Notes: generated by a model from the sequence alone, not told the origin. Shown: positions 1,948-50,814, numbered from the stretch's first letter. The stretch is 64,000 bases of DNA from an uncultured Candidatus Saccharibacteria bacterium (GCA_964646765.1 CAZYIA010000002.1:99467-163466); one strand, 5' to 3'. Made by a program: numbers and translations.

Positions 1948-3405
1948 GTGTCATCACGCGATAAACTTCTCTATATCGTCCTTCTCGGTTTTACCATTGG
2001 TGTTTTTCTTCGAGCAAAGACACCCGATGTATATGTGCCGGCGGCTTTAGTTTCACTCAGTACTGGAAGTTTATTTTTATATCTTAAGGAAAAGAAAAGA
2101 CGGGTTATTTTTCTTACGAGTATTTTTGCAGTTGCGCTTTCCCTTGGAGTCATTCGGTTTGTTGTGAGTGTCCCTCCACCCTCGCTTTTATTAGGTGGCG
2201 TTGGAGAAACTATTTCTCTCACCGGGGTTATTTCTAGTGATCCTGATATTCGTGAATTTACCACGAAGTTAAGTATAGAAACTGATGAAGGCACAGTGCT
2301 AGTGACAGCGCCGATTGGCGCATATGCCTATGGTGACGAAATAATGGCAACTGGAACTCTAACGCAACCCGAAAACTTTGAAACTACTACTGGCCGCACC
2401 TTTAACTACGAAGCTTATCTTGGCAAAGATGGCATTTACTTTGAAATCAAAAAAGCAAAAGTTGTAGTTCTTTCACACAACCATGGAAACAGTATTTTAT
2501 CGTTACTCTTCACATTGAAACATGCAATTCTTAATGTTTTTTCGAAAACGATTCCTGATCCAGAACGAACTCTTTTAGGCGGCATTCTATTAGGTATTAA
2601 ACAATCGCTCGGCACTGATGTGCGCGATGCGCTTGTTGCCACGGGTACTATTCATATTGTGGCACTCTCTGGTTATAACGTTTCAGTTGTTGCTGGTTCC
2701 ATTATGAGAGCACTTTCTCTGATTACTTCAAGAACTGTTGCAACAATGGCAGGAGGCATCGGTATTGTTCTTTTTGTGCTTATGACTGGCGCGTCTTCAA
2801 CAGCAATTCGAGCAGGGCTTATGGCTCTGTTAGCGTTGATCGCTAAAATCTGGGGCAGGCCCTATGATGCACTACGCATTTTGTTTATCGCCGGAGTAGC
2901 AATGCTGATCTATAACCCACATTACCTAACCGACGATATTTCGTTTCAGCTTTCTTTTTTGGCCACCCTTGGGATTATTGTAATTGAACCAATTCTTCGA
3001 TCGAAACTTTCTTTTTTACAATCGCGATTTATTATCGAACTTTTCTCAGTTACCCTCGCCGCTCAAATTGCGGTGCTGCCATTTTTAGTTTGGGCGATGG
3101 GAACCCTTTCTTTGGTATCGTTACCTATAAATATTTTTGTTGGCATTTTGATTCCGTATTCAATGTTCGGTGGGGCATTGGTAGCTTTTCTCGGCCTTCT
3201 TTCTATGCCTTGTGCTACTCCAGTTGCCTATCTCGAGTATTGGCTGCTTCATATACTCCTCTGGCTTATTACCAAAGGAGCTAGTGTACCGTATGCTTCA
3301 ATAATTATTCCACCTTTCTCAGGGCTTTTCATTCTATTAATCTATGGGCTGATTTTGTGGTGGGTCTATACAGAAAGTAGAATTCGTGTTATAAAAAAAA
3401 TCTAA
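1948..3405 (+). CDS. comEC: ComEC/Rec2-family competence channel protein (polytopic membrane domain only); GTG start
   Basis: Multiple hydrophobic helices are present. The central region (GTIHIVALSGYNVSVVAG...TGASSTAIRAG) is typical of the ComEC competence domain. It has no metallo-beta-lactamase domain of its own. Confidence 0.65.
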   Translation: MSSRDKLLYIVLLGFTIGVFLRAKTPDVYVPAALVSLSTGSLFLYLKEKKRRVIFLTSIFAVALSLGVIRFVVSVPPPSLLLGGVGETISLTGVISSDPDIREFTTKLSIETDEGTVLVTAPIGAYAYGDEIMATGTLTQPENFETTTGRTFNYEAYLGKDGIYFEIKKAKVVVLSHNHGNSILSLLFTLKHAILNVFSKTIPDPERTLLGGILLGIKQSLGTDVRDALVATGTIHIVALSGYNVSVVAGSIMRALSLITSRTVATMAGGIGIVLFVLMTGASSTAIRAGLMALLALIAKIWGRPYDALRILFIAGVAMLIYNPHYLTDDISFQLSFLATLGIIVIEPILRSKLSFLQSRFIIELFSVTLAAQIAVLPFLVWAMGTLSLVSLPINIFVGILIPYSMFGGALVAFLGLLSMPCATPVAYLEYWLLHILLWLITKGASVPYASIIIPPFSGLFILLIYGLILWWVYTESRIRVIKKI

Positions 3406-16741: not shown

Positions 16742-16900
16742 GTCGCAACTCCTTACAGGAGCAGTACACCTTTTGAGATATTTTTGTTCGTAAAACTCCA
16801 AAACTATCTCAAAAGGTCTTGCACTCCTCTAAGTATTCAGAGTTCACTCATCAGCGCCTCGCATCTAAAGCAATTTATATTGATTTTCCAAAATCTATTT

Positions 16901-16928
16901 CTCCACACAAAAACCGCCGTTCATGGCG
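16901..16928 (+). terminator. Rho-independent terminator after rpsL-rpsG
   Basis: The hairpin aaaaaccgccgttcatggcggttttt is followed by a T-run. Confidence 0.5.
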
Positions 16929-16950
16929 GTTTTTGCTATACTGGCAGCAT

Positions 16951-18243
16951 ATGCATCACCCTACGCGGTTGAAAGTTCTCATTGGAACTCTTGTTCTTAT
17001 TTCGATATACGCAGTATCTCTCTTTGCGCTTGCTGCCGTTACCTACGTAACTCCAGGAACTGTTCAAGATCCAGCTGGCGCACCTGGAAGCTATACCGTT
17101 GCTCCTGTTTCAATTGGGGAAACAATAGGGAACTCTCCCGTTCCGACAGGCGCTTTGTATGTAGATGGCAATGGCCTTTTGGCTACGGACGCCGGATTTA
17201 CTCATATTCCCGTACTTGTTGATCAACCAAACCAAACAGTTGCTAATCTAGCTATTTCATCAATTGCCAATACTGTTGATTCAACAACCGGGGTAACCAA
17301 TGTTGGCTTTGAGGGGGGATTAGTTATCAACGATAACTTTGATCATTCAGGAAATGGTGGAAGTTTGATTGGAACAGTAAATGGGGCTTTTCTCTCGAGT
17401 GCTGCCACAATTAATAAACTCATTGGCAACCTAAGTATTTCAGGAGGATATATTGGTGGTACAGGAACGATTACTGATGCTATTGGAGTAGCTTCGAATA
17501 TTATTAATGTTGGCAGTACAGTAACGAATGGTTACTTGTTCTACGGACAGAGTATTGGCTCAACAAACAAATATGGTGTCTATATTGATCTTGATGACAC
17601 GATAAATGTTCTCCGTGAACTTCAGCTCCGCCAAGATAGTCCGCTTAAGTGGTACGACGGCGACAGCTCAAATTACGTTGCTTTCAAGGCACCGAATGTT
17701 GTTGCTTCTGATCTTACTTGGGTGCTTCCTTCAGTTGAGGGAACCGATGGCCAAGTGCTTACTTGGCATACTGGCGGACTTTCGTGGGATACGCCGGCAG
17801 GTGGTGGCGGTGGGGGAGGAGAAACTGTAACCACTGTTAAACTAAGTCTCTCGCAATCTGATATTTTAGCTCTCGGAACAAAGGTAGAAGTTGTTCCAGC
17901 TCCTGGTCCTGGTAAAGCAATTCAAATTCTTAATATCGTAGGCACAGTAAATTTTGGAACTACGGCATATGATACTAATACCCAAATGGTTGGTTTCGAA
18001 GGAACCGATCCAAGTAATGGTATTTTTAGCTCCATAAACCACCTAAATGCTACCAGCTCAAAAACGATACTTTTTAACGCCAACGGTTTTGGTGGACCGA
18101 GTTCGTATAAAGCTGTTGTAGAGAATTCTCCATTTTATATTCAAGCAGGAAGTAGCGGTCCAGGAGGATTTACTGGAGGCAACCCAGCTAATGGAGATAG
18201 TACTATTGATTTGTATGTAACTTATACAACGATCAACCTCTAA
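16951..18243 (+). CDS. Membrane-anchored surface protein, family member A (N-terminal transmembrane anchor, conserved TYVTPGTVQDPAGAPGSYTV box, beta-rich repeats, poly-Gly hinge, C-terminal beta domain)
   Basis: The start was moved to MHHPTRLKVLIGTLVLISIYAVSLFALAA. It is paralogous to 18256..19464 and to the N-terminus of 52088..54724. Shared boxes are NVLRELQLRQDSPLKWYDGDSSNYVAFKAP and LTWHTGGLSWDTPAGGGGGGG. Confidence 0.55.
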   Translation: MHHPTRLKVLIGTLVLISIYAVSLFALAAVTYVTPGTVQDPAGAPGSYTVAPVSIGETIGNSPVPTGALYVDGNGLLATDAGFTHIPVLVDQPNQTVANLAISSIANTVDSTTGVTNVGFEGGLVINDNFDHSGNGGSLIGTVNGAFLSSAATINKLIGNLSISGGYIGGTGTITDAIGVASNIINVGSTVTNGYLFYGQSIGSTNKYGVYIDLDDTINVLRELQLRQDSPLKWYDGDSSNYVAFKAPNVVASDLTWVLPSVEGTDGQVLTWHTGGLSWDTPAGGGGGGGETVTTVKLSLSQSDILALGTKVEVVPAPGPGKAIQILNIVGTVNFGTTAYDTNTQMVGFEGTDPSNGIFSSINHLNATSSKTILFNANGFGGPSSYKAVVENSPFYIQAGSSGPGGFTGGNPANGDSTIDLYVTYTTINL

Positions 18244-18255
18244 CACTTTCATCGT

Positions 18256-19464
18256 ATGTCTATGTCTCTTCAACGAAAAAAAATTCTCCTCGGTTCATTT
18301 ATTTTTATTTCACTCTATGGGGCCGCGCTTACGTATGCAGCGATGACTTATGTTGCTCCAAGTACCGTCCAAGATCCTGTCGGTGCCCCAGGTACTTACA
18401 CAGTTGGTTTTGCTACAGCACCAAATGAGGTTCTCTATACCAATAGTTCAAACCAGCTTGCCTCTGATGCGGGGTTTACTCGTGTTCCAACAATGGTTGA
18501 TTTACCCGATCAATCAATTGGAAATAAAACTCTTACCACAATGCAGAACACGGCTAATACGAATGGTATTGCAAACGTTGGGTCAAGCTCGGTTCTCTTA
18601 ATAAATGACAGTTTTGATCACCTAAATGCGTATACTATTGGGTTAGCAGGTGAAGCAGTGCAAATGAGTAGTGGTACCATCGATAAGCTTGTTGGTCTTG
18701 GCGGCGTATCGATAAACAATGGTTCTGGTGTTGTAACACAGGCAATGGGAACGGCATCGGTGGTGGTTAACTCTGGTAGCGGTTCTATCACCAATGGCTA
18801 CGGATTTTTCTCGAACAAAATTGATGGTACAAATAAGTACGGTATTTATGTCGATGTTGACGACACTACGAATGTTCTTCGTGAACTTCAGTTGCACGAC
18901 GAAAGCCCGCTCAAATTATTTGATAAAGACAGTTCGAACTTTATTGCACTCAAGTCTCCATCAGTTCTCTTAACTGATACGACATATACACTTCCGCTTG
19001 CTGATGGTTCTTCTGGTCAATTTTTGAAAACGGACGGGGCAGGTAACCTTTCGTGGGATACGCCGGCAGGTGGTGGAGGGAGTAGCGACATTCAAACGGC
19101 AACCATTCACGTTAGTTCCGCAGAAATATTAGCACTCAACACTTCTCCTGTAGAACTTTTACCTGCTCCGGGAGCAGGTAAGGCTATTGATTTAGTATCA
19201 CTTGTCGTTAGACAGAACTTCGTTACAACTCAATATGATGGAGGATTCATGGCTATCTTCCCGAGTCTTTACTTTGGTGTAGGTAATATCAGCGACAACA
19301 TTAGTGGTACTCAGCTTGATTTTACTTCTTCGCGTATTACTAAAATGACTATGAACGGCCTCATGGTAGAGAATGAGCCTCTGTATCTTGGAACAAGTGC
19401 CAATCCAACCAATGGTGACGGCACCCTCGATTTCTATATAACCTATCGAATTATCGATTTGTAA
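18256..19464 (+). CDS. Membrane-anchored surface protein, family member B (paralog of 16951..18243)
   Basis: MSLQRKKILLGSFIFISLYGAALTYAAMTYVAPSTVQDPVGAPGTYTV, NVLRELQLHDESPLKLFDKDSSNFIALKSP and GNLSWDTPAGGGGS match the upstream gene in both order and spacing. The C-terminus ends TLDFYITYRIIDL, against IDLYVTYTTINL in the paralog. Confidence 0.55.
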   Translation: MSMSLQRKKILLGSFIFISLYGAALTYAAMTYVAPSTVQDPVGAPGTYTVGFATAPNEVLYTNSSNQLASDAGFTRVPTMVDLPDQSIGNKTLTTMQNTANTNGIANVGSSSVLLINDSFDHLNAYTIGLAGEAVQMSSGTIDKLVGLGGVSINNGSGVVTQAMGTASVVVNSGSGSITNGYGFFSNKIDGTNKYGIYVDVDDTTNVLRELQLHDESPLKLFDKDSSNFIALKSPSVLLTDTTYTLPLADGSSGQFLKTDGAGNLSWDTPAGGGGSSDIQTATIHVSSAEILALNTSPVELLPAPGAGKAIDLVSLVVRQNFVTTQYDGGFMAIFPSLYFGVGNISDNISGTQLDFTSSRITKMTMNGLMVENEPLYLGTSANPTNGDGTLDFYITYRIIDL

Positions 19465-19558: not shown

Positions 19559-21709
19559 ATGGAACGAGATTATCCTCTAGAGAAAGTACGTAACTTCGGT
19601 ATCGTTGCTCACATCGATGCCGGTAAAACCACGACATCAGAACGTGTGCTCTTTTACACTGGTGTATCACACAAAATTGGTGAAGTGCACGAAGGTGAGG
19701 CAACCATGGACTGGATGGAACAGGAGCGTGAACGCGGTATCACCATTACTGCTGCGGCAACTACCTGTTTCTGGACTCCAACCTACGCAAACGGCGACAA
19801 AAATAAAAAGCACCGCTTTAACTTGATCGACACCCCTGGACACATCGACTTCACCGTAGAAGTGAAGCGTTCCCTCCGTGTGCTCGACGGCGCAGTTGTG
19901 GTGTTCGATGGTGTTGCTGGTGTAGAACCACAGTCTGAAACAAACTGGCGCTACGCTGACGAAGCAAAGGTTCCTCGTATTTGTTTCATCAACAAACTCG
20001 ACCGTACTGGCGCATCATTCGAGAAGTCATACGCTTCTATTCTTGATCGCTTGAACAAAAAAGCTGTTCGTATGCAGATTCCAATTGGTCTTGAAGATAA
20101 GCACGAAGGTGTTATTGATCTTCTTACTATGGAAGCAGTAACGTTCTCGGGTGAAAAAGGAGAAAAAATTTCTCGCGGACCAATTCCTGAAGAGTACAAA
20201 GCTGAAGCAGAAAAGTTTCACAACGAACTCATCGAAGCTATCGTTTCTCATGACGACGAACAGATGACCGCATACCTCGACGGAAAAGTTCCATCAATCG
20301 ATGAACTCAAGAAAACACTCCGTAAGGCAGTTATCGCAAACGAAATTTTCCCAGTGTACGCAGGTTCTGCGCTTAAGAACAAAGGCGTGCAACTCGTCCT
20401 CGACGGTGTTGTAGATTATCTTCCAGCTCCAACTGATATTCCACCAATCAAAGGTATTAACCCTGACACTGAAGAACCAGCAGAACGCAAAGCTTCTGAT
20501 GCCGAACCATTTTCAGCACTTGCTTTCAAGGTTGCTTCTGATCCATTCGTTGGCCAGCTCGTGTTCTTCCGTGTGTACTCTGGACAACTTGCCGCTGGTT
20601 CATACGTGTACAACCCACGCACTCGAAACAAAGAGCGCATCGGCCGTATTCTTCGTATGCACGCAAACGAGCGTGAAGAAGTGAAGAAAGTATTTGCTGG
20701 TGAAATTGCCGCTGCCGTTGGTTTGAAAGACACCATTACTTCTGACACTATCTGTGACGAACAGAATCCAATTGAACTTGATCGCATTGTCTTCCCAGAA
20801 CCAGTTATCAGCTTACGTATCGAACCGAAGACAAAGGCTGACCAGGAAAAAATGGGTATGGCACTTTCTCGTCTTGCTCAAGAAGACCCAACCTTCCGTG
20901 TCACCTCAGATTCTGAAACTGGCGAAACAATCATCGCAGGTATGGGAGAACTTCACCTCGACATTATTGTTGATCGCTTGAAGCGCGAATTCTCTGTTGA
21001 AGCAAACGTTGGTAAGCCACAGGTTGCTTACCGCGAAACTATTACCGGTACTGCTGAAGTGGAAGGTAAGTACATCAAGCAAACTGGTGGTCGTGGTAAC
21101 TATGGTCACGTTCGCATCAAGATTAAGCCAATGGATATGACTCTTACCAAAGAGGATATTGCTGACCTTCCGAAGAACGTGAAGCGCGAAGACCACTTCG
21201 AATTCATTAACACAATTAAAGGTGGTGCAATTCCTCAAGAATATATTCCAGCTTGTGAAAAAGGTTTCCGTGAAGGTCTTGAACGCGGTGTTGTTGCTGG
21301 ATTCAAAATGGTGGACGTTTCTGTTGACCTTTGGGATGGTAGTTACCACGATGTGGACTCAAACGAAATGGCCTTCAAGATTGCTGCTTCAATGGCAATT
21401 CAGGATGCATGTAAACAAGCTCGTCCAGTTATCCTTGAACCGATGATGAAAGTAGAAGTGGTGACTCCAGATAAATTCATGGGTGATGTTACTGGTTCTC
21501 TTTCAGCGAAGCGTGGTCTTATCGAAGGTATGGAAGCTCGTGGTATGAACCAAGCAGTAAAAGCAGTTGTGCCACTTTCTGAAATGTTCGGTTACATGAC
21601 TAACCTCCGCTCAATGACCGAAGGCCGCGCTGGATTTACTATGGAATTCCTTCGCTACGATGTGGTTCCGCAGAACGTCGCCGACGAAATCGTAAAATCC
21701 CGCAAATAA
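19559..21709 (+). CDS. fusA: Elongation factor G
   Basis: The G1–G5 GTPase motifs ([20 protein letters not shown]; DTPGHIDF; NKLD) and all EF-G domains II–V are present, including [13 protein letters not shown]. Confidence 0.95.
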
Positions 21710-21720
21710 TTTTTGACACT

Positions 21721-21752
21721 AAAAACAACCCCTCACAAGGGGTTGTTTTTGC
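21721..21752 (+). terminator. Rho-independent terminator after fusA
   Basis: The hairpin aaaaacaacccctcacaaggggttgttttt has flanking A- and T-runs. Confidence 0.6.
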
Positions 21753-21799
21753 AAGAGGAGAGGCGCTCACTCGTCTTAGTTAGTGACAAGAAATGGTAT

Positions 21800-21828
21800 T
21801 TGACTAAATGTCAAAAACATGGTAAAGT
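21800..21828 (+). promoter_or_regulatory. Candidate sigma70-type promoter (TTGACT, 17-nt spacer, extended -10 TGgTAAAGT) for the downstream secreted-protein gene
   Basis: ttgactaaatgtcaaaaacatggtaaagt lies about 115 nt upstream of the 21944 start. Confidence 0.35.
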
Positions 21829-21943
21829 CAGAGCCATTTTACTGCCTTGAAAAATGTTAAGGAATAGAAAGTTTTGGCCGCTATAAAGTGGCTGGGATTT
21901 TCTATTTTTTAATTAAACAATCACTTTTAAACAAAGACCAACT

Positions 21944-24574
21944 ATGAGGAAATTTCTTCTCTGCATGCTGGTAGCTCTAGGTAGTTACCACATGTTTGCT
22001 CAAACCACTTTCTCCACGTCCTTCAACAGCGGGGTTCAATTTATCTGTTCACAGCAGGTAAACTTTGAAATCGCTGAAGCAGGCATTACGGCTTCCGTTT
22101 CGGAAGACTTACAACCAAACACGGTGTATTTTCACCTGAATCCTTCCGTAACAGGAATAATTACCAATGTCACTATATGGCAAGGTGGGGTTCAGTATGG
22201 TCCTACGGTTAATCCGTTTGGGGCGATGCAGGTAGCTATTCAGGGTTCGCCCGGCATACCAGCAGGAACTTCGGAAATTCTTACGTTCAATGCAGATGTT
22301 ATTGGCAATTCTGGCGACATATTCAGCCTAACAATTGACTCAATTCGTTGCATTGGTCTAACTACCGGAACGGCCGTTACTCTTCCTGCAAATTTTTCCG
22401 GAAAAACATTCATTATTCAAAGTTGCCCGGCGCTTATCGCGGATTTCAGTTTGAGTAAACATGAGTTTTGCTACGGTGAAATTATAGCAATAACAAATCA
22501 TTCTATTGCTCCAGGTAATGCCGAATATCAATGGGAATTTGGTTGGAACTCACAGCCGCCTAATATTATTGGTGATACTTCAGTTTTCCCGAATACATTT
22601 ACCGTTCAGTTCTATCAAACAGGAACATACAATGTTGATCTTTGGGTAACCAATCATACTACCGGCCAATCAAGCCACCACGCCGAAACTGTTCAAGTAC
22701 GCCCGAATCCATCTACAACATCAATTACCGCAAGCGGATTACTGGGCTGCAATGGAGCGACCGAATTAACACTTACAGCAAATACCCTTGGCGGTATTAA
22801 CACATACACCTGGATGCAAGGAACATGGGGTGGTCCATATGACACACTTGCTGTGAATGGAGATTCCACTCTTATGGTTACCACGCCGGGAGAGTATTTC
22901 GTTGTTCCTACAAATGTGTATGGTTGCTCACAACCGTATCCGCAACCCTACAATGTAAGTTATGTTCAAAATCCAAGTGTGGAATTGTACGTAACGAATT
23001 TGCCGGGAACATGGATTCAAATACCACAGGTACTACATGATACTGCTTATGCGTGCGAATTTAGTCTTTCCCAACTACAACTTGGAGTAAATGCTTGGGT
23101 TCCTATGACCGGCTCCCAAGGACTATTCTATGAGTGGAACGATAGTAGCCATGCCGCTCAGTTTCATCCACTTTCCGGTTCCGGAAATTCGGAGTGGTAT
23201 TATGTTTCAGTTACCAATACAAATGGTTGCACTACAGTGGATTCTCTGTACTTAGATGTTGTTCATCCAACAGCGCCCACTATTACTGCATTAGGCCCAA
23301 CTACTTTCTGCGAAGGTGACCATGTATCTTTATTAGCCAGTGGTTCTCCAGGATTACAATACTACTGGAACTACGGTGCTCCTGGAGATAGCGTGTCGCT
23401 GTTCTGGAATCCCGGACCTATCGTTGCGTTTACCATTGATGCCTATGGTTGCAGAGCCCAATCAGATACCGTGTTTATTACCATATTGCCGGTGCCACAA
23501 AAACCAACAATATTAGTGAACGGTTGCAATCTTGTTTCTGATGCTGTTTCAAATAACACCTGGTTTTATGGAACACAGCAACTCTCTTACACTGGAAGTG
23601 TTATTACTCCTGATTCATCAGGAATTTTTATCACCACAGTTACAGGAGTGAATGGTTGCTCAGCAACTTCTGACCCTGTTGCGTTCCAAGTACCACCACT
23701 TCCACAAATTACAGTTAGCGATAACAATTTTTGTGAAGGTGGTTCAAGTACGCTCGCTGTTGGACCTGGTACGGATTTTGTATGGTCTAACGGCCAAACA
23801 GGAAGCCCAATTACTGTTGAAACTTCAGGCACCTACAGCGCCACCGTTACAAATGGTACCTGCGTACGGGTTGCAACACCTGTTACTATCACGGTTTTTC
23901 CGAAACCGAACACTACTATTGATACCGTTGGCACAATGCAATTTTGCCAAGGTGGCTCAGTTACCTTGCTACTTCAGGAAAGTGGTTCTGTGTACGATTG
24001 GAACACAAATGAGGTTACACAAGAAATTAATGTAACCCAATCCGGTTCCTTCCGTGCTCACATCACTAATATATATGGCTGCGAAGCTTATACTGATGTA
24101 GTAACAGTGTTTGTACATCCATTACCTGATGTTGACCCGATTTTAGTAACTAACTGTTTACTGGCCGCGCCTTACGGAGCAGCGACCTATCAGTGGTTAC
24201 TGTTCGGAGATACTATTAGCGGAGCAACAAACCGCTTTTGTACTGCAGATACCAACGGCATCTACGAATGTGTTCTGACCAGCCAATTTGGTTGTGAGGC
24301 GTATTCGTTGCCAACTGTTGTAACTTGCGGAGCTACTACGGGTATTACAGAAATTACCGAAGATGCGCTTGCGTTATTCCCGAACCCCACAACTGGTTTG
24401 GTTACCGTAAAGCCTGATTTGACGCTTGAAGAAGAAGTTTTCATTTACTCCATTACCGGAGATATTGTTCGCAAGGAACCGAAAGGGACCAAAGCATTCG
24501 ATATTTCTAACCTGGCAGACGGTATGTATACCGTTCGCATAGGGAATTCGATTACAAAACTGGTGAAGCAGTAA
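21944..24574 (+). CDS. Large secreted multi-domain protein with a Bacteroidota-type signal peptide, tandem Cys-bracketed Ig-like repeats and a type IX secretion (Por) C-terminal sorting domain
   Basis: The signal peptide is MRKFLLCMLVALGSYHMFAQ. Repeats of the form FC.GG(S).L.....Y.W..G.T...I.V...G.Y...VT...GC occur at least five times. The C-terminal ~70 aa (LFPNPTTGLVTVKPDLTLEEEVFIYSITGDIVRKEPKGTKAFDISNLADGMYTVRIGNSITKLVKQ) fit the T9SS CTD pattern (PNP..., Y...G..V, D.S.L..G.Y.V.I). Confidence 0.7.
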   Translation: MRKFLLCMLVALGSYHMFAQTTFSTSFNSGVQFICSQQVNFEIAEAGITASVSEDLQPNTVYFHLNPSVTGIITNVTIWQGGVQYGPTVNPFGAMQVAIQGSPGIPAGTSEILTFNADVIGNSGDIFSLTIDSIRCIGLTTGTAVTLPANFSGKTFIIQSCPALIADFSLSKHEFCYGEIIAITNHSIAPGNAEYQWEFGWNSQPPNIIGDTSVFPNTFTVQFYQTGTYNVDLWVTNHTTGQSSHHAETVQVRPNPSTTSITASGLLGCNGATELTLTANTLGGINTYTWMQGTWGGPYDTLAVNGDSTLMVTTPGEYFVVPTNVYGCSQPYPQPYNVSYVQNPSVELYVTNLPGTWIQIPQVLHDTAYACEFSLSQLQLGVNAWVPMTGSQGLFYEWNDSSHAAQFHPLSGSGNSEWYYVSVTNTNGCTTVDSLYLDVVHPTAPTITALGPTTFCEGDHVSLLASGSPGLQYYWNYGAPGDSVSLFWNPGPIVAFTIDAYGCRAQSDTVFITILPVPQKPTILVNGCNLVSDAVSNNTWFYGTQQLSYTGSVITPDSSGIFITTVTGVNGCSATSDPVAFQVPPLPQITVSDNNFCEGGSSTLAVGPGTDFVWSNGQTGSPITVETSGTYSATVTNGTCVRVATPVTITVFPKPNTTIDTVGTMQFCQGGSVTLLLQESGSVYDWNTNEVTQEINVTQSGSFRAHITNIYGCEAYTDVVTVFVHPLPDVDPILVTNCLLAAPYGAATYQWLLFGDTISGATNRFCTADTNGIYECVLTSQFGCEAYSLPTVVTCGATTGITEITEDALALFPNPTTGLVTVKPDLTLEEEVFIYSITGDIVRKEPKGTKAFDISNLADGMYTVRIGNSITKLVKQ

Positions 24575-24599
24575 AAACTGCCTTCATTTTATCTTTTGA

Positions 24600-24634
24600 A
24601 AAAGGCGAGCTTCGGTTCGCCTTTTTTCTTTTTC
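24600..24634 (+). terminator. Rho-independent terminator
   Basis: The hairpin aaaaaggcgagcttcggttcgcctttttt is followed by a T-run. Confidence 0.6.
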
Positions 24635-24659
24635 CACCAAATTCACAGGCAAGGCGCCT

Positions 24660-24688
24660 TTGACAGGATACTTGTTTTGACGTAGTAT
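24660..24688 (+). promoter_or_regulatory. Candidate sigma70-type promoter upstream of tuf (TTGACA, 17-nt spacer, TAGTAT)
   Basis: ttgacaggatacttgttttgacgtagtat lies about 190 nt upstream of the tuf start. Hairpin-forming sequence follows immediately. Confidence 0.4.
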
Positions 24689-24880
24689 AGCCCCAACTGC
24701 TCCTTGGGGCATTTTTTATTTGTCCAAATAAAAAATGCCAGAAGACAGGTATGAGTTAGTGGCTGTGGCTGAGGATAGATGATCAAATCCTCAACTTTCG
24801 CCAGTAACTCAATTTATTATCAGTTAAGCTAATAGATTGCAGATGTAGAATCTGGGAACTACTAGCAAAGACTAAAACAT

Positions 24881-26080
24881 ATGGCAGAAGAATTTAATCG
24901 TTCCAAGCCGCACGTAAACGTAGGTACCATCGGTCACGTTGACCACGGTAAGACCACGCTCACGGCGGCAATCCTCACTGTTCTCGGTCGCGAAGGCAAC
25001 GGGTATGGTGCAAAGATGAAGGGTGTTGATCAAATCGACAACGCTCCAGAAGAAAAGGCTCGTGGTATCACGATTGCTCTTTCTCACAACGAGTACGAAA
25101 CTCCTACTCGTCACTACGCTCACATCGACGCTCCGGGTCACGCTGACTACATCAAGAACATGATTACTGGTGCCGCTCAAATGGACGGTGCTATTATCGT
25201 GGTAGCAGCTACTGACGGTGCTATGCCTCAGACTCGTGAACACATCCTCCTTGCTAAGCAAGTTGGTGTTCCAAAGATCATCGTTTTCCTCAACAAGTGC
25301 GACATGGTTGACGACAAAGACATGATCGACCTCGTTGAAGAAGAAATCCGCGAACTCCTCACCAAGCAGGGCTTCGACGGTGCTGGTGCTCCAGTTATCC
25401 GCGGTTCAGGTCTCAAGGCTCTCGAATCAGCTGACAACTCAGATCCATGGGCACAGAAAGTGCTTGAGCTCGCAAAGGCTCTCGACGAATACATCCCGCT
25501 TCCACAGCGTGATCTCGACAAGCCATTCCTCATGCCGGTTGAAGACATCTTCTCAATCGAAGGCCGTGGAACTGTGGTTACCGGTCGTATTGAGCGTGGT
25601 GTTGTAAAAGTTGGTGAAGATATCGAAATCGTTGGTATCAAGGACACCGTTAAGACAACTGTTACCGGTATCGAAATGTTCAACAAGTCCCTCAAAGAAG
25701 GTATGGCTGGTGACAACGCTGGTATCCTTCTCCGCGGTACTAAGAAAGAAGACATCACTCGTGGTCAGGTGCTTGCAAAGCCAGGCTCTGTAACTCCTCA
25801 CTCACAGTTTGAAGCTGAAGTATATATCTTGAAGAAGGAAGAAGGTGGCCGCCACACTCCATTCTTCTCTGGATATAAGCCACAGTTCTACGTTCGTACT
25901 ACGGACGTAACTGGTGAAGTTACTCTTCCAGAAGGAAAGGAAATGGTCGTTCCAGGTGACACCGTTACTTTCAAGGTGAAGCTCGTTACTCCAGTTGCGC
26001 TCGAAGAAAAGACTCGTTTTGCTATCCGTGAAGGTGGTAAGACAGTTGGTGCTGGTGTCGTAACCAAAATTACTGCGTAA
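24881..26080 (+). CDS. tuf: Elongation factor Tu
   Basis: [39 protein letters not shown] and NKCDMV match, and the overall length and domain order are those of EF-Tu. Confidence 0.95.
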
Positions 26081-29715: not shown

Positions 29716-30108
29716 ATGGAATCACCAAAAGAAGAGGAAGCTTTTTCTGTAGTAAAGAGAGCACGAAGTTTTACCCATGCTTGGCGCGGATTATGCATTA
29801 TGGTTAAAACGCAGCATAATGCCTGGCTTCATGTATTAGCCGCACTGGTTGCAATTGCTCTTGGTGTATATTTTTCAATCTCTACAACTGAATGGTTTGC
29901 CCTCATTATTTCTATTGGTGTGGTATTAGTGGCTGAAGCGTTTAATACGGCAATTGAAGTTGATATCAATTTAACTTCACCGGAATATCACCCGTTTGCA
30001 CGCGACACCAAAGACATTGCCGCTGGGGCAGTGCTCATTTCAGCCCTCATGGCTCTCACTGTTGGCCTTATGATTTTTTTACCGAGAGTCCTTGAACTTC
30101 TTTCTTAA
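29716..30108 (+). CDS. dgkA: Diacylglycerol kinase / undecaprenol kinase family (DgkA)
   Basis: AWRGLCIMVKTQHNAWLHVLAALVAIALG and AEAFNTAIEVDINL carry the conserved E..NTAIE motif. Three transmembrane helices, about 130 aa. Confidence 0.7.
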   Translation: MESPKEEEAFSVVKRARSFTHAWRGLCIMVKTQHNAWLHVLAALVAIALGVYFSISTTEWFALIISIGVVLVAEAFNTAIEVDINLTSPEYHPFARDTKDIAAGAVLISALMALTVGLMIFLPRVLELLS

Positions 30109-32518
30109 AGAGAGTTCCTTTCTCTTCGAAATTTTTCCAAAGTGAATACGAAGGGGAAGCTGTTGAAAGGAGACAGATGCTTCCTTTTTTTGTGTGTTGG
30201 TAAGCAAAAGTCACGGCCGCTTTCATGCTTTTTGTTTTAAGAATGTTAAATCCTTTTTCGCTTTTTAAGATTCGCTTACCTGAATCAGGGAAGAGCACAA
30301 TATTTTGCACTTTATATTTTCGGAGTGTTTTTTCGAGCTCACGAAAATCATAGCCGCGGTCCGTACCGCCCAAGAAGATGGTATTAACGTTTTTCAGAGT
30401 CTTGATTGCTTCGCTAGTTGATTCTGGGGTAGTTGAAATAGCGTCGTCGTAGAATGTAACATCGCTATATGTGCCAACTTTCTCAAGTCGATGAGGAAGC
30501 GGCTTAAAGTTTTTGATCGCTTTTTTGATTGCTATGTCAGAAATACCAAAGTATTTTGCAATAGTAATTGCTGCTTTAATGTTACTCTCGTTATGTTTTC
30601 CTAAGAGTGGAATATCTTTTTCTCCAACTGGAATTTTTGCTGTAAATGGAGCAACAAAAGCCACGTCCCCTTTCTTCTGAAATTTGAATATGTTTTTCTT
30701 AGCCGCGTAGTATGCTTCCACTGATCCGTGATAGTTCATGTGTTCAGGGAACAAGTTAAGAAGTAGGGCAACGTTTGGTGATTGCTCAATGTCCTCAAGC
30801 ATGTAACTTGAAAGTTCAAGGACGAAAATCTCTTTCTGATTGCGCTTAGTAAGCACTGCTTCGAGCATTGGATTTCCAATATTCCCAAGCAGCCGCACTT
30901 TTTTCCCGCCCGCTTTGAGCATTTCATATACTAAGCTGGTAGTCGTGCTTTTACCTTTTGTTCCCGTAATGCCAACCGTTACGTTTTTATTTTCAGAGAA
31001 GAAAAGATTAGTTGCTGTAGTATAGGGAATAGTAATAAGGCGCTTTGGAATACCTGGAGTTTTAATGGCAAGGTCATAAGCGCTCTGTTTCTTTAAATAG
31101 TTTTTATCGCGGGTTTCGTCTAAAATGCCAACTTTCAGGTTTGGGTATTTTTGCTTGAGATACTTTTCAGTTACTTTTCCTTCTCGGCCGTAACCAACAA
31201 TTGCCACGTTTTTGATACTCAAGAATTTAAATGGAGTCGGAAGCGTTGGAGCGTGAGCAGTTTTAAAAACTTTCTCTACTAGAGCCTTCGGATTTTTAAC
31301 TTTTGATAAAAATGTTTTTACTACAACGGAGTCTTTCCAATTCTTTGAAGCTAAATAAAGCGCAGCCTGGGATTCTTCAAATGTACCTACACAATCAAAC
31401 GGCTTCATGGTGCCAAAGCCTAATATGTCTTTATAGAGTGGCAAAAGCGATTCATCCGCTAACAGATTCTTGCCGAACATGTCGATGACTTCTTGTTTTG
31501 GAAGCGTGGCGGCAAGCAGCAAAAAGACGAAGGCACATTTTGGGCACTCTCCGCACCACAGCGTATTTGGGCGATCTTTGTGAACTTTGAAGTTTCGGTT
31601 GCAGCTTGAGAAAAAAGGAAAGTATTTTGGATACTTGGCAAACATTTTCACAATTCGGATTTCATAAAATTGGCGAAGAACTGAAGTATAGATGATGTCA
31701 GGTGTAATAAATTTTCGAGTGTACTCTTGAAGTAGTGCTTCAAATTCTGCTGATTTGCTCCATTGGTGATTAATTGTTTCTCCTTTATAGGTTAAGTTCC
31801 CGAAGTTACTCGAGTGTTCATTTGCGACAGCGATATATTTAAAGCCGTAGAGTGCTGAAGTGAGAAGACCAAGAAAAGCAAACACGGCGGAAATTGGCAC
31901 GTGACCGTTATATGCACCATCGTGATTTTGAAAAATCTTCGGATCAAGTCTTCGGTGAATTTTTAGCGCTGGATAGCCAATAGTTTCAATAATGTGTTCT
32001 GAAATAAGATCAGCTCGCTCGGTTTCAACTAAGAATGATGTAACGGGAAAATCACGCAACAGTTCGGCTGCAACGATTGAATCTTTTCCGCCACCAATAC
32101 CAAGTAAGATGTCATTGCCGGTTGGAATTCGTACGGAAGTAGTGCCAGTTTTTGTAAAAGGGAATTTGGCGATATTTTTTGGATTAATATTATTTCGGTA
32201 TGAAAATTCACCGAGACCTTTTCGATATACTGTATTCCAAAATTCCGCCTGCTCTTTAGAGAGAGAGTAGGGAACCGTAATTTTCTTCGGGCAATACAGT
32301 TTGTAGTAACTGATACCTAAAATAAGGTGAAGCGGCTCTAAAAAGTGGCCTAGCTCTTCCTTCGAAAGTTTCCGCGGAGCTTTTGGCAAGGTAATGGTTT
32401 CGGTAAAAATAAGTGGTTCTCGATTTGAAAAAGCGATTTCGTAAGAAAACTTGATTTCTAGGCTGTTTTTAGGGAATTCGTAGCCGAGAAAGTTAAAACT
32501 GTTCGCGCGCGGAGTCAT
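30068..32518 (-). CDS. murD: Fusion protein: N-terminal PP-loop (adenine-nucleotide alpha-hydrolase-like) domain with a CxxC motif, joined to a complete UDP-N-acetylmuramoyl-L-alanine–D/L-glutamate ligase (MurD-type)
   Basis: The N-terminal half has LLGIGGGKDSIVAAELL (SGGxDS-type PP-loop) and WCGECPKCAFVFLL. The C-terminal half has VAIVGYGREG, the Mur ligase P-loop GITGTKGKSTTTSLV, the central domain, and the Mur ligase C-terminal domain (HNESNIKAAITIA; FYDDAISTTPEST). Confidence 0.65.
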   Translation of the reverse strand: MTPRANSFNFLGYEFPKNSLEIKFSYEIAFSNREPLIFTETITLPKAPRKLSKEELGHFLEPLHLILGISYYKLYCPKKITVPYSLSKEQAEFWNTVYRKGLGEFSYRNNINPKNIAKFPFTKTGTTSVRIPTGNDILLGIGGGKDSIVAAELLRDFPVTSFLVETERADLISEHIIETIGYPALKIHRRLDPKIFQNHDGAYNGHVPISAVFAFLGLLTSALYGFKYIAVANEHSSNFGNLTYKGETINHQWSKSAEFEALLQEYTRKFITPDIIYTSVLRQFYEIRIVKMFAKYPKYFPFFSSCNRNFKVHKDRPNTLWCGECPKCAFVFLLLAATLPKQEVIDMFGKNLLADESLLPLYKDILGFGTMKPFDCVGTFEESQAALYLASKNWKDSVVVKTFLSKVKNPKALVEKVFKTAHAPTLPTPFKFLSIKNVAIVGYGREGKVTEKYLKQKYPNLKVGILDETRDKNYLKKQSAYDLAIKTPGIPKRLITIPYTTATNLFFSENKNVTVGITGTKGKSTTTSLVYEMLKAGGKKVRLLGNIGNPMLEAVLTKRNQKEIFVLELSSYMLEDIEQSPNVALLLNLFPEHMNYHGSVEAYYAAKKNIFKFQKKGDVAFVAPFTAKIPVGEKDIPLLGKHNESNIKAAITIAKYFGISDIAIKKAIKNFKPLPHRLEKVGTYSDVTFYDDAISTTPESTSEAIKTLKNVNTIFLGGTDRGYDFRELEKTLRKYKVQNIVLFPDSGKRILKSEKGFNILKTKSMKAAVTFAYQHTKKGSICLLSTASPSYSLWKNFEEKGTLFKKEVQGLSVKKS

Positions 32519-38635: not shown

Positions 38636-39244
38636 ATGCAGAAAAAGGAACGTCTTGGTTTTAATATTGTTTTGCTTGGGCAAATTGCCGCTGGAAAAGA
38701 AACACAGGCGGCACTTCTTATGGAAAAATACGCTCTCCATCCTGTTGAATCAGGAAAGTACTGGCGTACGATGATGAAGGCTAAAACTAAAGAAGGGGAA
38801 TGGCTCCGTCGTACAACCGCCAAAGGACTGCCGGCTCCAGTATCACTGATGAAAAAATTCCTTGTTGAACGTATTAACAAAAAACCAAAAAATAAAGACC
38901 TTCTCTTTATTGGTAACCCACGATTGAAGCCGGAAGCCCAGCTTTTAAAAAAGTTGTTAGCAGCAAAGAAACAAGATTTCTTTGCGCTCTATATCTCACT
39001 TCCTGATAAGGAAATATATAATCGATCGCTCAAGCGAAAAGAAGGTGCCGGTAAGGCAATTTACAAAGTGCTTGATGAAAAGCACCTTATTGCTGCGCGT
39101 ATTAAATGGCATAAAGACCAGGTTGGTAAGACCGTGGCCTACTTTGATTCTCTCGGTAAATTAAAAAAAATTAACGGCAAACAAAGCATTGAAAAGGTGG
39201 CTGCTGATATTGAAAAAGCTATCGCTCAAGCTCGAAAAGCCTAA
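38636..39244 (+). CDS. Adenylate-kinase-like nucleoside-monophosphate kinase paralog with a variant P-loop (GKETQ instead of GKGTQ)
   Basis: The protein has FNIVLLGQIAAGKETQAALLMEKY, and its length and LID-like region match the adk family. The canonical adk is at 43325..43921. Confidence 0.5.
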   Translation: MQKKERLGFNIVLLGQIAAGKETQAALLMEKYALHPVESGKYWRTMMKAKTKEGEWLRRTTAKGLPAPVSLMKKFLVERINKKPKNKDLLFIGNPRLKPEAQLLKKLLAAKKQDFFALYISLPDKEIYNRSLKRKEGAGKAIYKVLDEKHLIAARIKWHKDQVGKTVAYFDSLGKLKKINGKQSIEKVAADIEKAIAQARKA

Positions 39245-40900: not shown

Positions 40901-41548
40901 ATGGATACTCCTACAACAACAAATGCTGCTTCGGCTACCGGAGCACAGAAGCCTCGACCAGCAAACGATCGTCGCCGTCCAGGTGGTCCTCGTGGCCAAG
41001 GTGGTCCACGCCGTGGTGGTGATCGAGGTGGTAATCGCCCAAACTTTGAGCGCCCTCGACCAGAATTTGAACAAAAAATGCTCGCTGTTCGCCGCGTAAC
41101 CCGTGTGGTTGCTGGTGGACGCCGCATGTCATTTGCTATCGCACTCGCGATTGGTGACAAAAAAGGTTCAATCGGTCTCGGTACTGGTAAAGCTGGTGAT
41201 ACTTCACTCGCTATCAACAAAGCAGTTCGTGATGCAAAGAAAAATCTCATTCGCATCAAGACCACTAAGAATTTTTCAATTCCTCAGGTTGTGTCTGCTA
41301 AGTATGGCAGTGCTGAAGTAATGATTATGCCTAACCGTGGTAAAGGTCTTGTGGCTGGTTCTGCAGTTCGTGATCTTCTCTCTCTCGCTGGTATTAAAGA
41401 CACTACTTCAAAAGTGCTCACTGGTTCGAAAAACAAGTTAAACATTGCTCGCGCAACTATGCTCGCGCTCTCTCGCATTGCGGACAAGAAAACTTCTTTC
41501 CCGATGACTGAACAGAAAGCGTTCGTTGCTGATGCTCCAGCAGAGTAA
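40901..41548 (+). CDS. rpsE: 30S ribosomal protein S5 (with an Arg/Gly-rich N-terminal extension)
   Basis: RRVTRVVAGGRRMSFAIALAIGDKKGSIGLGTGKAGDTSLAINKAVRDAKKNLIRI matches the S5 dsRBD and C-terminal domain. Confidence 0.9.
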   Translation: MDTPTTTNAASATGAQKPRPANDRRRPGGPRGQGGPRRGGDRGGNRPNFERPRPEFEQKMLAVRRVTRVVAGGRRMSFAIALAIGDKKGSIGLGTGKAGDTSLAINKAVRDAKKNLIRIKTTKNFSIPQVVSAKYGSAEVMIMPNRGKGLVAGSAVRDLLSLAGIKDTTSKVLTGSKNKLNIARATMLALSRIADKKTSFPMTEQKAFVADAPAE

Positions 41549-41991: not shown

Positions 41992-43266
41992 ATGAACTCA
42001 CTTATTCAAAAGATAAAGACAGTTTTCACGGATGCTTCGATTCGTCGTCGTGTTATCGTGGTACTTCTTTCCCTCGTTGTCTTCCGACTGCTTGCGTCGA
42101 TTCCAGTTCCTGGTATTGATGCAAATCGTTTGGCAGCATTCCTCGCTAATAACCAGTTTCTCGGTATCTTAAACATCTTCTCAGGTGGTGGACTTTCAAA
42201 CCTTTCGGTGATCATGCTCGGTGTTGGTCCGTACATTACGGCTTCCATCGTGCTTCAACTCCTCACGATTATGGTGCCATCACTTAAGCGTCTCTACCAA
42301 GAAGAAGGTGAAGCTGGCCGCAAGAAATTTGCCCAGTACTCACGTCTTCTTACAGTACCGCTTGCTGCTGTTCAAGGATTTTCCCTCATGACCATTCTTG
42401 AACGACAGGGAATTCTGGTTAGCCCAGATCTCTTTCACAAGTTTGTAACCCTCGCGGTTATCATTGGGGGCTCACTACTCCTTATGTGGATTGGAGAACT
42501 TGCTACTGAATTTGGTATTGCAAACGGTGTCTCGCTTATTATCTTTGCTGGTATCGTTGCTCGTCTTCCTCGTGAAGTTGGACAACTTCTCTTTACCTTC
42601 GATGCTTCGCAGATTCCGCAGTACATCGTATTCCTTTTGGTTGCTGCTCTCCTTATTCTTGGAGTGGTTATCGTTACTGAAGCGGAACGTCCAATTCCAG
42701 TAACGTATGCTCGCCGAGTTACGGCAACAGGACGCGCAACAGGTGGTGTCTCAACATACCTTCCAATTCGCGTGAACCAGGCTGGTGTGATGCCAATCAT
42801 CTTTGCGCTTTCACTCCTCCTCATTCCGCAGCTTCTTGGAACCCTTCTGTCGAATAATGCGCATGCATCTCTCCAAGCAATTGGTCATACACTCGCACTA
42901 TTCACTCAGAATACTTGGGGCTATCTTGTTGCCTACTTCGTTCTCGTGTTTGTCTTTACCTACTTCTATACAGCGATTACTTTCGAACCACATCAGCTCG
43001 CTGAAAATCTTCAGAAAGGTGGTGCGTTCGTTCCAGGTATTCGCCCAGGTAACGATACCGAGCAGTACGTTGGCAACATTGTTTCTCGCATTACCTTTAT
43101 TGGTGCGCTCTTCCTCGGTGTTATTGCGATCTTGCCACTTCTCATGCAGAAGTTAACTGGCATCACCGCAATTGCAGTCGGTGGCACAGCGCTCCTCATC
43201 GTAGTGTCTGTTGTGCTTGATTTCTTGAAACGAATCGACGCTCAGCTTGCGATGCGCGAGTACTAA
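41992..43266 (+). CDS. secY: Preprotein translocase subunit SecY
   Basis: Ten transmembrane helices are present, and the protein has GIDANRLAAFL, FSGGGLSNLSVIMLGVGPYITASIVLQLL and IPGIRPG. Confidence 0.92.
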   Translation: MNSLIQKIKTVFTDASIRRRVIVVLLSLVVFRLLASIPVPGIDANRLAAFLANNQFLGILNIFSGGGLSNLSVIMLGVGPYITASIVLQLLTIMVPSLKRLYQEEGEAGRKKFAQYSRLLTVPLAAVQGFSLMTILERQGILVSPDLFHKFVTLAVIIGGSLLLMWIGELATEFGIANGVSLIIFAGIVARLPREVGQLLFTFDASQIPQYIVFLLVAALLILGVVIVTEAERPIPVTYARRVTATGRATGGVSTYLPIRVNQAGVMPIIFALSLLLIPQLLGTLLSNNAHASLQAIGHTLALFTQNTWGYLVAYFVLVFVFTYFYTAITFEPHQLAENLQKGGAFVPGIRPGNDTEQYVGNIVSRITFIGALFLGVIAILPLLMQKLTGITAIAVGGTALLIVVSVVLDFLKRIDAQLAMREY

Positions 43267-43288
43267 ATTCTTCTCGAAAGGATTAAAA

Positions 43289-43316
43289 ACAGCCTGCTTT
43301 CGCAGGCTGTTTTTGT
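43289..43316 (+). terminator. Rho-independent terminator between secY and adk
   Basis: aaacagcctgctttcgcaggctgttttt. Confidence 0.55.
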
Positions 43317-43324
43317 GTGTTAGG

Positions 43325-43921
43325 ATGGCTCGTATGAATCCTAAAACCTATGTATTTTTCGGTAATGTTGGTGCCGGAAAGGGAACCCAGATTGAACGCC
43401 TCCAGAAATACCTTAAGGAAAAAACTGGCCAAGATACAGCATACGCGTATCCAGGCGGAGAGTTTCGGAAACTCATTGGTGGAACAGGTTATACCTCGTC
43501 GTTGGTAAAAGATATTTTGAGCGCTGGGAAATTAGTACCGATGTTCCTGGTTTCGTGGGTTATTGGCAATGTTCTAGTTGAAAAACTTACCAGCCCTGAC
43601 ATGCATGTAATTTTTGACGGTTTCCCACGATCACTCGATCAGGTAATTGCTTTTGAATCGACGCTCGATTTGTATAAGCGTACAAATGTTGAACTTGTCT
43701 ATATCGAAGTGCCGAAAGAGGAAGTGATTAAACGCATGAAGCTACGCGGTCGTTTTGATGACACCGATGAAGGTATTGCTCAGCGTTTTTCGGAGTATGA
43801 AAACAATGTACTTCCTGCATTAAATCTTTTGAAAGAAAAGGGATACCCAGTACATACGATTCATGGAGCTCAGAGTATTGAAGAAGTATTTGCTGATCTC
43901 GTTAAAGCGCTCAATGTGTAA
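43325..43921 (+). CDS. adk: Adenylate kinase
   Basis: MARMNPKTYVFFGNVGAGKGTQ carries the canonical GxxGxGKGTQ P-loop. The start was moved from the listed TTG at 43247 to the ATG after the terminator. Canonical position after secY. Confidence 0.8.
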   Translation: MARMNPKTYVFFGNVGAGKGTQIERLQKYLKEKTGQDTAYAYPGGEFRKLIGGTGYTSSLVKDILSAGKLVPMFLVSWVIGNVLVEKLTSPDMHVIFDGFPRSLDQVIAFESTLDLYKRTNVELVYIEVPKEEVIKRMKLRGRFDDTDEGIAQRFSEYENNVLPALNLLKEKGYPVHTIHGAQSIEEVFADLVKALNV

Positions 43922-50813: not shown

Positions 50814-50814
50814 T

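Follow-up and report, generated by a model that had tools for sequence, protein, structure and literature searches.

A stretch of DNA of 64,000 nucleotides from an uncultured Candidatus Saccharibacteria bacterium (GCA_964646765.1 CAZYIA010000002.1:99467-163466; hereafter the window) carries, between fusA and tuf, a gene for a putative fibrillar adhesin that ends in a type IX secretion system (T9SS) C-terminal domain (CTD). In the TXSScan survey, T9SS was found in Bacteroidetes only (PMC4793230). This raises the question of how such a gene came to lie in a Candidate Phyla Radiation (CPR) genome, and of what its sorting signal might do there. The reading that we consider probable is that of an old Bacteroidota-derived, Sec-exported adhesin cassette that circulates among CPR lineages and whose CTD likely plays a non-canonical role.

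A type IX sorting domain in a Patescibacteria genome

We have compared the last 66 residues of the adhesin with two profile libraries. The domain matched Pfam PF18962 (Por_Secre_tail) with 38.7 bits (E=1.3e-9, gathering threshold 27) and TIGR04183 with 31.7 bits (E=1.1e-7, cut-off 23), and is thus far above chance in both. This confirmed the first-pass annotation, made from the sequence alone, which had proposed a C-terminal T9SS sorting domain. The CTD forms the extreme C-terminus of a protein that, by inspection, has an N-terminal Sec signal peptide. A CTD profile that included the CPR sequences also matched the solved T9SS CTDs 8glk_D, 8glj_D, mirolase (8qb1), PorZ (5m11), RgpB (5hfs) and PorU (6za2), and seven strands were predicted at aa 811-875 in a low-confidence model (pLDDT 51-71). 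Mutagenesis has revealed that the Gly of the Lbeta3beta4 loop and the C-terminal K-x-x-K-x are needed for T9SS recognition (PMC11285876). The Lbeta3beta4 motif reads ITGDIV/ITGSIV in the two CPR orthologs (the window protein and P0002, described below), its glycine (Gly39) being invariant in a 25-sequence CTD alignment, and the extreme C-terminus, ITKLVKQ, is identical in both. No other CTD was found in the six reading frames of the window with a hidden Markov model (HMM) built from homologs. When GTDB genomes were scanned with the two-ortholog alignment and with patterns drawn from the signal peptide, the only confirmed match was a CTD in Flavobacterium cheongpyeongense.

The host belongs to the Patescibacteria/CPR and is Paceibacteria/Minisyncoccia-like. 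Among thousands of EF-G relatives, the named ones at 84-86% identity were Candidatus Pacebacteria, Nomurabacteria, Minisyncoccia and "Patescibacteria group." The L15 gene (41554-41985) directly follows the S5 gene (40901-41548), with no L30 gene between them, and a missing L30 is a recognised CPR trait. PG_binding_1 domains are present in the secreted proteins native to the window, which is consistent with a wall without an outer membrane. To our knowledge, CPR cells have no outer membrane, and Patescibacteria genomes lack both lipopolysaccharide (LPS) and T9SS. Among the window proteins and in the 10 kb past the right edge (~74 kb inspected), no T9SS component was found (SprA/Sov, PorK/L/M/N, PorU, PorV). 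The CPR-like genome and the lack of T9SS genes in the window, both remarked upon in the first reading, were therefore upheld.

That first reading had also considered a chimeric assembly. An artefact in which a Bacteroidota fragment was joined to a CPR contig during assembly or binning would agree with the adhesin being the strongest tetranucleotide outlier of the window, with deviant leucine codons. However, four independent Logan contigs were 100% identical to the window, with no single-nucleotide polymorphisms, and two of them cross both junctions (L001 and L002, from the independent assemblies of SRR11845633 and SRR11845619). Both encode the adhesin protein exactly, in the gene order S7, two unknown proteins, EF-G, adhesin open reading frame (ORF) and EF-Tu start. 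On a JGI contig that is separate and comes from another sample, the gene for an ortholog with 61% identity (P0002) immediately follows that for a 716-aa EF-G. In addition, the edges of the cassette fall on a terminator and on the conserved leader of tuf, and the GC content of the gene equals that of the host. The junction-spanning assemblies and the position of the ortholog exclude a chimeric assembly, and we regard an artefact of any kind as extremely improbable.

The cassette and the fusA-tuf slot

We have delimited the cassette by blastn against relatives with EF-G 88-89% identical (L004-L008), in which homology to the window ends at 21793 and is back at 24619-24629 (Table 1). The slot is flanked by fusA and 84 nt on the left and by a 262-nt tuf leader on the right. 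Its location between fusA and tuf, with a promoter-like element and terminators of its own, agreed with the earlier description, and consensus matches were obtained for each of these signals.

The same slot holds different cargo in the relatives, namely a 130-aa ORF (L004/5), a 203-aa ORF (L006/7) or two ORFs of 117 and 55 aa (L008). The start of the 130-aa ORF (L004 10484-10876; MKKLILPLLCVVFFATNFLTSC) resembles the lipobox-containing signal of a lipoprotein, which would make it another small exported protein. Further slot states were a 154-aa ORF (L052), an MscS channel (L086) and an empty slot (277 nt in L012, less than 200 nt in L025 and L049), and more distant relatives have signal-peptide surface proteins without CTDs upstream of tuf. 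The gap between rpsG and fusA was equally variable, being either empty or occupied in relatives by a 1051-aa beta-helix protein, a methyltransferase or a diversity-generating retroelement. The retroelement (L010 877-3339, also in L011), a neighbour of the second CTD cassette described below, comprises a bAvd accessory protein, a reverse transcriptase and a candidate target of 224 aa.

In the window itself, the rpsG-fusA gap contains tandem paralogs (16819-18243 and 18256-19464) that are 43% identical and have no Pfam match. The anchor-like segment at their N-terminus recurs in an 878-aa protein (52088-54724) bearing Peptidase_S74, an endosialidase-chaperone, tail-fibre-like domain, and together the three look like native surface fibres of one family, anchored at the N-terminus. 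The contig of P0002 has a 399-aa ORF at the same spot upstream of fusA, a likely homolog by size and position only. On the other side of the slot, identity among relatives is higher in the non-coding tuf leader (90%) than in the coding sequence of fusA (82%). A long hairpin in this leader (~24752-24811) shows some compensatory changes across 5 sequences, and the leader, which has no Rfam match, may be a regulatory RNA.

P0002 (821 aa) was the closest homolog of the adhesin and the only close one, and it is encoded directly after fusA in a non-sister CPR lineage. In the EF-G tree, the EF-G accompanying the ortholog (P0123) is 95.5% identical to those of the adhesin-less P0124 and P0126, and 88.7% identical to that of the window. 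The adhesin cassette is thus patchily distributed, owing either to repeated loss or to movement between CPR lineages. Such movement would fit the mostly within-phylum horizontal gene transfer (HGT) reported for groundwater Patescibacteria (PMC12455944). The identity between the window protein and P0002 was 64-76% over aa 200-650, 12-20% over aa 651-800 and 68-77% in the CTD (71% over the whole CTD). Different repeats have been substituted between the two proteins in the 150 aa that precede the CTD.

A third CPR lineage (L010/L011, EF-G ~88% identical to that of the window) has three small ORFs and then, immediately upstream of tuf, the gene for an FG-GAP beta-propeller protein of 562 aa. This protein has a signal peptide ending in VVG↓QSF and a CTD of its own, which scored 29.0 with PF18962 (gathering threshold 27) and 29.3 with TIGR04183 (cut-off 23). 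The L010 CTD is ~30% identical to the window CTD, no closer than Bacteroidota CTDs are, indicating that the two cassettes are separate imports or very old; the composition of the L010 cassette looks ameliorated. Among 77 tuf loci collected with a clade-specific DNA pattern, the window and L010 were the only two with a CTD, so that CTD cassettes are rare and confined to few lineages. The insertion first described for the window is therefore real but not a one-off, since in another CPR lineage the variable slot is taken up by a CTD protein of a different kind.

The occurrence of CTDs on different passengers in three related CPR lineages, together with their conservation, might suggest that the clade has its own machinery reading T9SS-type CTDs (e.g., sortase-like or S-layer-attachment), the domain being then a native sorting signal. 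We consider this very unlikely, as the 64 kb encode one CTD protein, most relatives' slots encode none, and the low identity between the two CTD types speaks for separate imports. No candidate machinery was found either.

Concerning the way in which cassettes are replaced, the cassette edges had no flanking direct or inverted repeats and no att/attC sites beyond chance, and there was no integrase ORF or tRNA at the slot. Viral relatives of the cassette were found neither in phage records (tblastn) nor in IMG/VR, which leaves a viral vector unsupported. The Rfam analysis of the window and the cassette gave nothing at the gathering threshold and weak matches on the terminator. Because no integrase or att-like repeats accompany the cassette, we infer replacement by homologous recombination via the conserved flanks among related CPR genomes. 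The window also encodes a ComEC-type competence channel (Competence + DUF4131; 1948-3405), a plausible DNA-uptake route for such an exchange.

Table 1. Features of the adhesin cassette and its flanks (window coordinates)
Feature	Position	Strand	Basis or remarks
fusA (EF-G, 716 aa), conserved left flank	19559..21709	+	DNA 82% identical to relatives; homology extends to 21793
fusA terminator hairpin AAAAACAACCCCT / AGGGGTTGTTTTT, inside left flank	21721..21750	+	Inverted repeat with 13-nt arms, 100% complementary
Variable cassette (2.8 kb), adhesin transcription unit	21794..24618	+	Not homologous at DNA level to the corresponding interval of close relatives
Sigma-70-like promoter match, TTGACT-17-TAAAGT with TG extension	21800..21828	+	Consensus match only
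Long imperfect hairpin of the 5' untranslated region, then T-run	21862..21907	+	
T9SS-CTD fibrillar adhesin ORF (putative)	21944..24574	+	876 aa
Sec signal peptide, aa 1-19, MRKFLLCMLVALGSYHMFA↓Q	21944..22000	+	Inspection; also conserved in ortholog P0002
N-terminal head, aa 21-165, cohesin/CBM-like beta-sandwich, presumed binding module	22004..22438	+	
PKD-like domain, aa 190-251	22511..22696	+	PF18911 17.6 bits and PF00801 15.4 bits, both below gathering threshold
About seven Cys-bracketed Ig-like stalk repeats, aa 256-800	22709..24343	+	Cys pairs and homolog coverage
T9SS type-A CTD, aa 811-876	24374..24571	+	Motifs PNP, ITGDIV, GMYTVRI, KLVKQ
Adhesin intrinsic terminator, right cassette boundary	24598..24627	+	13-bp stem then T-run; consensus match
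tuf promoter TTGACA-17-TAGTAT (24660-24688) and structured leader, right flank	24629..24880	+	90% identical to relatives
tuf (EF-Tu, 399 aa)	24881..26080	+	

Architecture and origin of the adhesin

The signal peptide of the adhesin, as judged by inspection, has a basic n-region, a hydrophobic core of 12 residues and an A↓Q cleavage context, the mature protein starting with QTT. Gln occupies position +1 of the predicted signal peptidase I (SPI) site in the window protein and P0002 (FA↓Q) as well as in the L010 protein (VVG↓Q), and a [ASGTC]Q context was present at the predicted sites of 73 of 97 homologs. This Q-rule, i.e., Gln after the SPI site, is described as specific to Bacteroidetes and not shared across the Fibrobacteres–Chlorobi–Bacteroidetes (FCB) group (PMC5837995).

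The stalk contains the Cys pairs 269/328, 371/429, 456/503, 528/572, 597/640, 668/713 and 738/784-795. An 876-aa ORF with a Bacteroidota-type signal peptide and tandem Cys-bracketed Ig-like repeats had been proposed at the outset; both features were recovered, and the quoted repeat pattern (FC.GG...GC) occurs literally in three of the repeats (aa 456-503, 597-640 and 668-713). In Pfam, the window protein had no match to PF19081 (Ig_7) at E<=1 and gave sub-threshold PKD and Ig_2 matches only. In phmmer searches, it was clearly homologous to PF19081-bearing proteins, the homologs having PF19081, PF13585 and PF18962. The whole protein matched no PDB sequence in phmmer, and a full-length AlphaFold model built on the two-sequence alignment was too poor for use (pLDDT 35).

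The head (aa 21-165) lies outside the region covered by the matches to Bacteroidota-type homologs. An exhaustive HMMER search of 1.84 billion representatives returned only 12 relatives of it, and with their alignment the head was modelled by AlphaFold with a pLDDT of 86. Two of the proteins bearing this head are Bacteroidota-style: P0245 (238 aa) consists of a signal peptide, the same head and a CTD, and P0242 has the head three times in tandem.

In a search of 5.8 billion proteins, 118 of the 120 homologs among the matches listed had at most 36% identity to the adhesin. Those with names came mostly from Bacteroidota (Chitinophagales, Runella, Dyadobacter, Fluviicola, Saprospiraceae and others), with tails of the T9SS or CHU_C kind.

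We have also compared the composition of the gene with that of its host. Its leucine codons were the most deviant of all genes (chi2=31, p=9e-6), with CTC at 5% vs. 28% in the host, CTG at 17% vs. 6%, CTA at 12% vs. 5% and TTA at 24% vs. 13%, a direction opposite to the expression-linked bias of the ribosomal genes. The codon shift reported by eye in the first-pass annotation thus held for leucine (less CTC and more TTA, CTA and CTG), whereas the difference in CCG for proline was only small (28% vs. 23%). The tetranucleotide comparison that had likewise been suggested made the adhesin gene the top outlier of the window (z=3.6). A missing Shine-Dalgarno sequence was dropped as a Bacteroidota-like trait, as only 2 of the 61 host genes have one. 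TAnAnT boxes stand ~7-12 nt before many starts among the 61 genes of the window (e.g., 45398, 54779, 48184 and 13721), which suggests that leaderless or Shine-Dalgarno-independent translation is widespread in them.

Taken together, the domain architecture, the mostly Bacteroidota names of the homologs, the Q-rule signal peptides and the deviant composition support a Bacteroidota-type origin of the adhesin that would not be recent and would have been followed by spread within the CPR. Groundwater Patescibacteria are documented recipients of genes from Bacteroidota, with which they co-occur, although most HGT takes place within Patescibacteria (PMC12455944). Horizontal acquisition from a Bacteroidota-like donor, as first envisaged, is hence the best explanation of these data. 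A recent, identifiable donor is not supported, the closest relative being a CPR gene.

Role of the sorting domain and wider context

Based on these results, a Bacteroidota-type fibrillar adhesin gene would have entered a Paceibacteria/Minisyncoccia-like lineage by horizontal transfer and would now form a self-contained promoter-gene-terminator cassette in the variable fusA-tuf slot. Cassettes would be exchanged or replaced through the conserved flanks by homologous recombination among related CPR, so that the ortholog is found in a non-sister lineage while closer relatives hold other cargo. The N-terminal signal peptide points to export of the adhesin by Sec, and the fold and architecture of the protein suggest an extracellular adhesin role, with the cohesin-like head as binding tip. 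In the CPR cell, the CTD would support neither the canonical outer-membrane crossing via SprA/PorV nor cleavage by PorU, because there is no outer membrane and no T9SS part in the inspected region. The first reading had also envisaged a decoy or an adhesin mimicking host surface proteins; the selective retention of the CTD despite replacement of the upstream 150 aa makes a non-canonical role plausible. The domain is probably not useless ballast but serves such a role, for example in docking or anchoring.

Several observations weigh against parts of this reading. The nearest non-CPR homolog among the matches listed has at most 36% identity, so that no close donor is at hand, and we infer the donor phylum from architecture and names rather than from a tree. 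The GC content of the gene (0.44) is host-like, as is its overall codon divergence (Kullback-Leibler 0.069 vs. 0.047-0.089 in other long genes). Several other relatives of the head combine it with PG_binding_1 and Kelch or NHL propellers, an arrangement that resembles the window's own wall protein, and the adhesin may therefore be a mosaic, in which the head is of CPR type and the stalk and tail are imported. With regard to surface retention, no monoderm anchor (LPXTG, transmembrane helix or peptidoglycan-binding domain) was recognisable in the adhesin. The ~74 kb inspected for T9SS genes are only part of the genome, and conservation of the CTD could reflect folding constraints rather than function.

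This last point leads to the alternative of a vestigial tail. Under it, a working Sec-exported adhesin or binding protein would have kept the CTD as an inherited Ig-like end domain, solely for the folding or stability of its neighbour. The lack of T9SS parts and of other CTD proteins in the window would agree with this, as would the largely ameliorated overall composition and the structural importance, in RgpB, of CTD integrity and of its contact with the preceding domain (PMC11285876). However, the domain before the CTD has been replaced between the orthologs, yet the CTD is still 71% identical, including the ITKLVKQ end. Moreover, the independent CTD of L010 is also complete, and a useless 70-aa tail would be expected to erode in streamlined genomes. 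We thus find a vestigial tail possible but unlikely.

A non-canonical role could also be played outside the CPR cell, where the surface attachment complex of a partner Bacteroidota (PorV shuttle and PorU sortase) would recognise the CTD, and the CPR protein would be docked or covalently tethered there. The CTD and both T9SS-recognition elements (PMC11285876) are conserved between the CPR orthologs despite the replaced adjacent domains, an unrelated passenger has its own complete CTD in the same slot of another CPR lineage, and an outer-membrane translocation signal is of no use to the CPR cell itself. The attachment complex in which PorU and PorV work fixes cargo to the outward-facing side of the outer membrane (PMC11285876), and groundwater Patescibacteria co-occur with Bacteroidota and receive their genes (PMC12455944). 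Nevertheless, T9SS cargo normally reaches the translocon from the periplasm and not from outside, CTDs can be incompatible between Bacteroidota species (PMC11285876), and CTD cassettes were rare among the sampled tuf loci. Such use of a host T9SS therefore seems improbable to us. A wider version, in which the CPR clade repeatedly captures T9SS-tailed Bacteroidota surface proteins and uses the tails as an inter-species docking tag for the PorV/PorU of a partner, strikes us as at least as doubtful.

Returning to the circulating Bacteroidota-derived cassette, we have compared it with known systems. Like the type-A CTD cargo of Bacteroidota (Porphyromonas gingivalis RgpB, Tannerella forsythia mirolase and the Flavobacterium johnsoniae 8glj/8glk substrates), the adhesin combines a Sec signal peptide, followed by Gln at +1, with a ~70-aa C-terminal domain containing PNP, D-x-x-G-x-x-V, G-x-Y and K-x-x-K-x, above the HMM thresholds. 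It differs in being encoded by Patescibacteria, where canonical translocation, PorU cleavage and anchoring to A-LPS would not be expected to apply. With Bacteroidota fibrillar adhesins (PMC8286594; the "gliding motility-associated" proteins of Cytophaga and Flavobacterium) it shares a head, a Cys-bracketed Ig-like stalk and a C-terminal anchor domain, and homologs with PF19081, PF13585 and PF18962 are 25-36% identical to it. In contrast to them, its repeats are below the Pfam Ig_7 threshold, its cohesin-like head is rare, and it has 876 aa instead of mostly 1000-1500 aa.

A study of HGT in Patescibacteria (PMC12455944) likewise describes foreign genes in Paceibacteria-like genomes, and the patchy spread seen here fits its within-phylum exchange. 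That study makes no mention of secretion-system domains, whereas we report surface cargo with a signal for machinery that the recipient seems to lack, at a recurrent slot. The slot also resembles integration hotspots between core genes in its conserved flanks and unrelated cargo per strain. It differs from them in having no integrase, att repeats or tRNA and in breaking the str operon (rpsL-rpsG-fusA-tuf), which is usually tight. A literature search on T9SS or CTD proteins in Patescibacteria, CPR or Parcubacteria returned no relevant report. The protein family as such is familiar, and the novelty lies in its repeated occurrence, in conserved form, at one defined hotspot of a CPR clade.

Other genes of the window deserve a brief description. 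A 912-aa VirD4/TrwB-like coupling ATPase (TrwB_AAD_bind, TraG-D_C; 45398-48136) is encoded right after map in the ribosomal-protein/secY/adk/map cluster. The S10-spc ribosomal array is interrupted by dgkA, pyrF and the gene for an 816-aa Mur-ligase-family protein (30068-32518, - strand), whose counterpart in relatives is annotated MurL_N + MurL_epimerase_C. Two divergent adenylate-kinase-like genes (38636-39244 and 43247-43921, 25% identical), one of them within the ribosomal protein cluster, and a pair of CYTH-domain paralogs (48765-49349 and 50662-51351, 35% identical) were also found. Past window position 64000 (L087 1-9920) lie purL, purQ, purF, purN, purD, prs and a purK/T-like gene, a purine run that exceeds the biosynthetic capacity with which CPR are often credited.

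As to what the finding means, T9SS and its CTD signal are taken to be hallmarks of the Bacteroidota and of the FCB group, and here CTDs occur in three lineages of a host-dependent phylum without an outer membrane. CTD proteins thus offer a tangible marker for genes passing from Bacteroidota to these CPR and a lead to the partners of the latter. The fusA-tuf interval is a defined hotspot for surface-protein swaps in streamlined genomes, and the locus is a natural experiment on the function of a secretion signal that has been parted from its machine. If the tail were vestigial, this would be a tidy case of HGT of moderate interest. If instead it were a docking tag, Bacteroidota would be indicated as the hosts of the Paceibacteria-like lineage.

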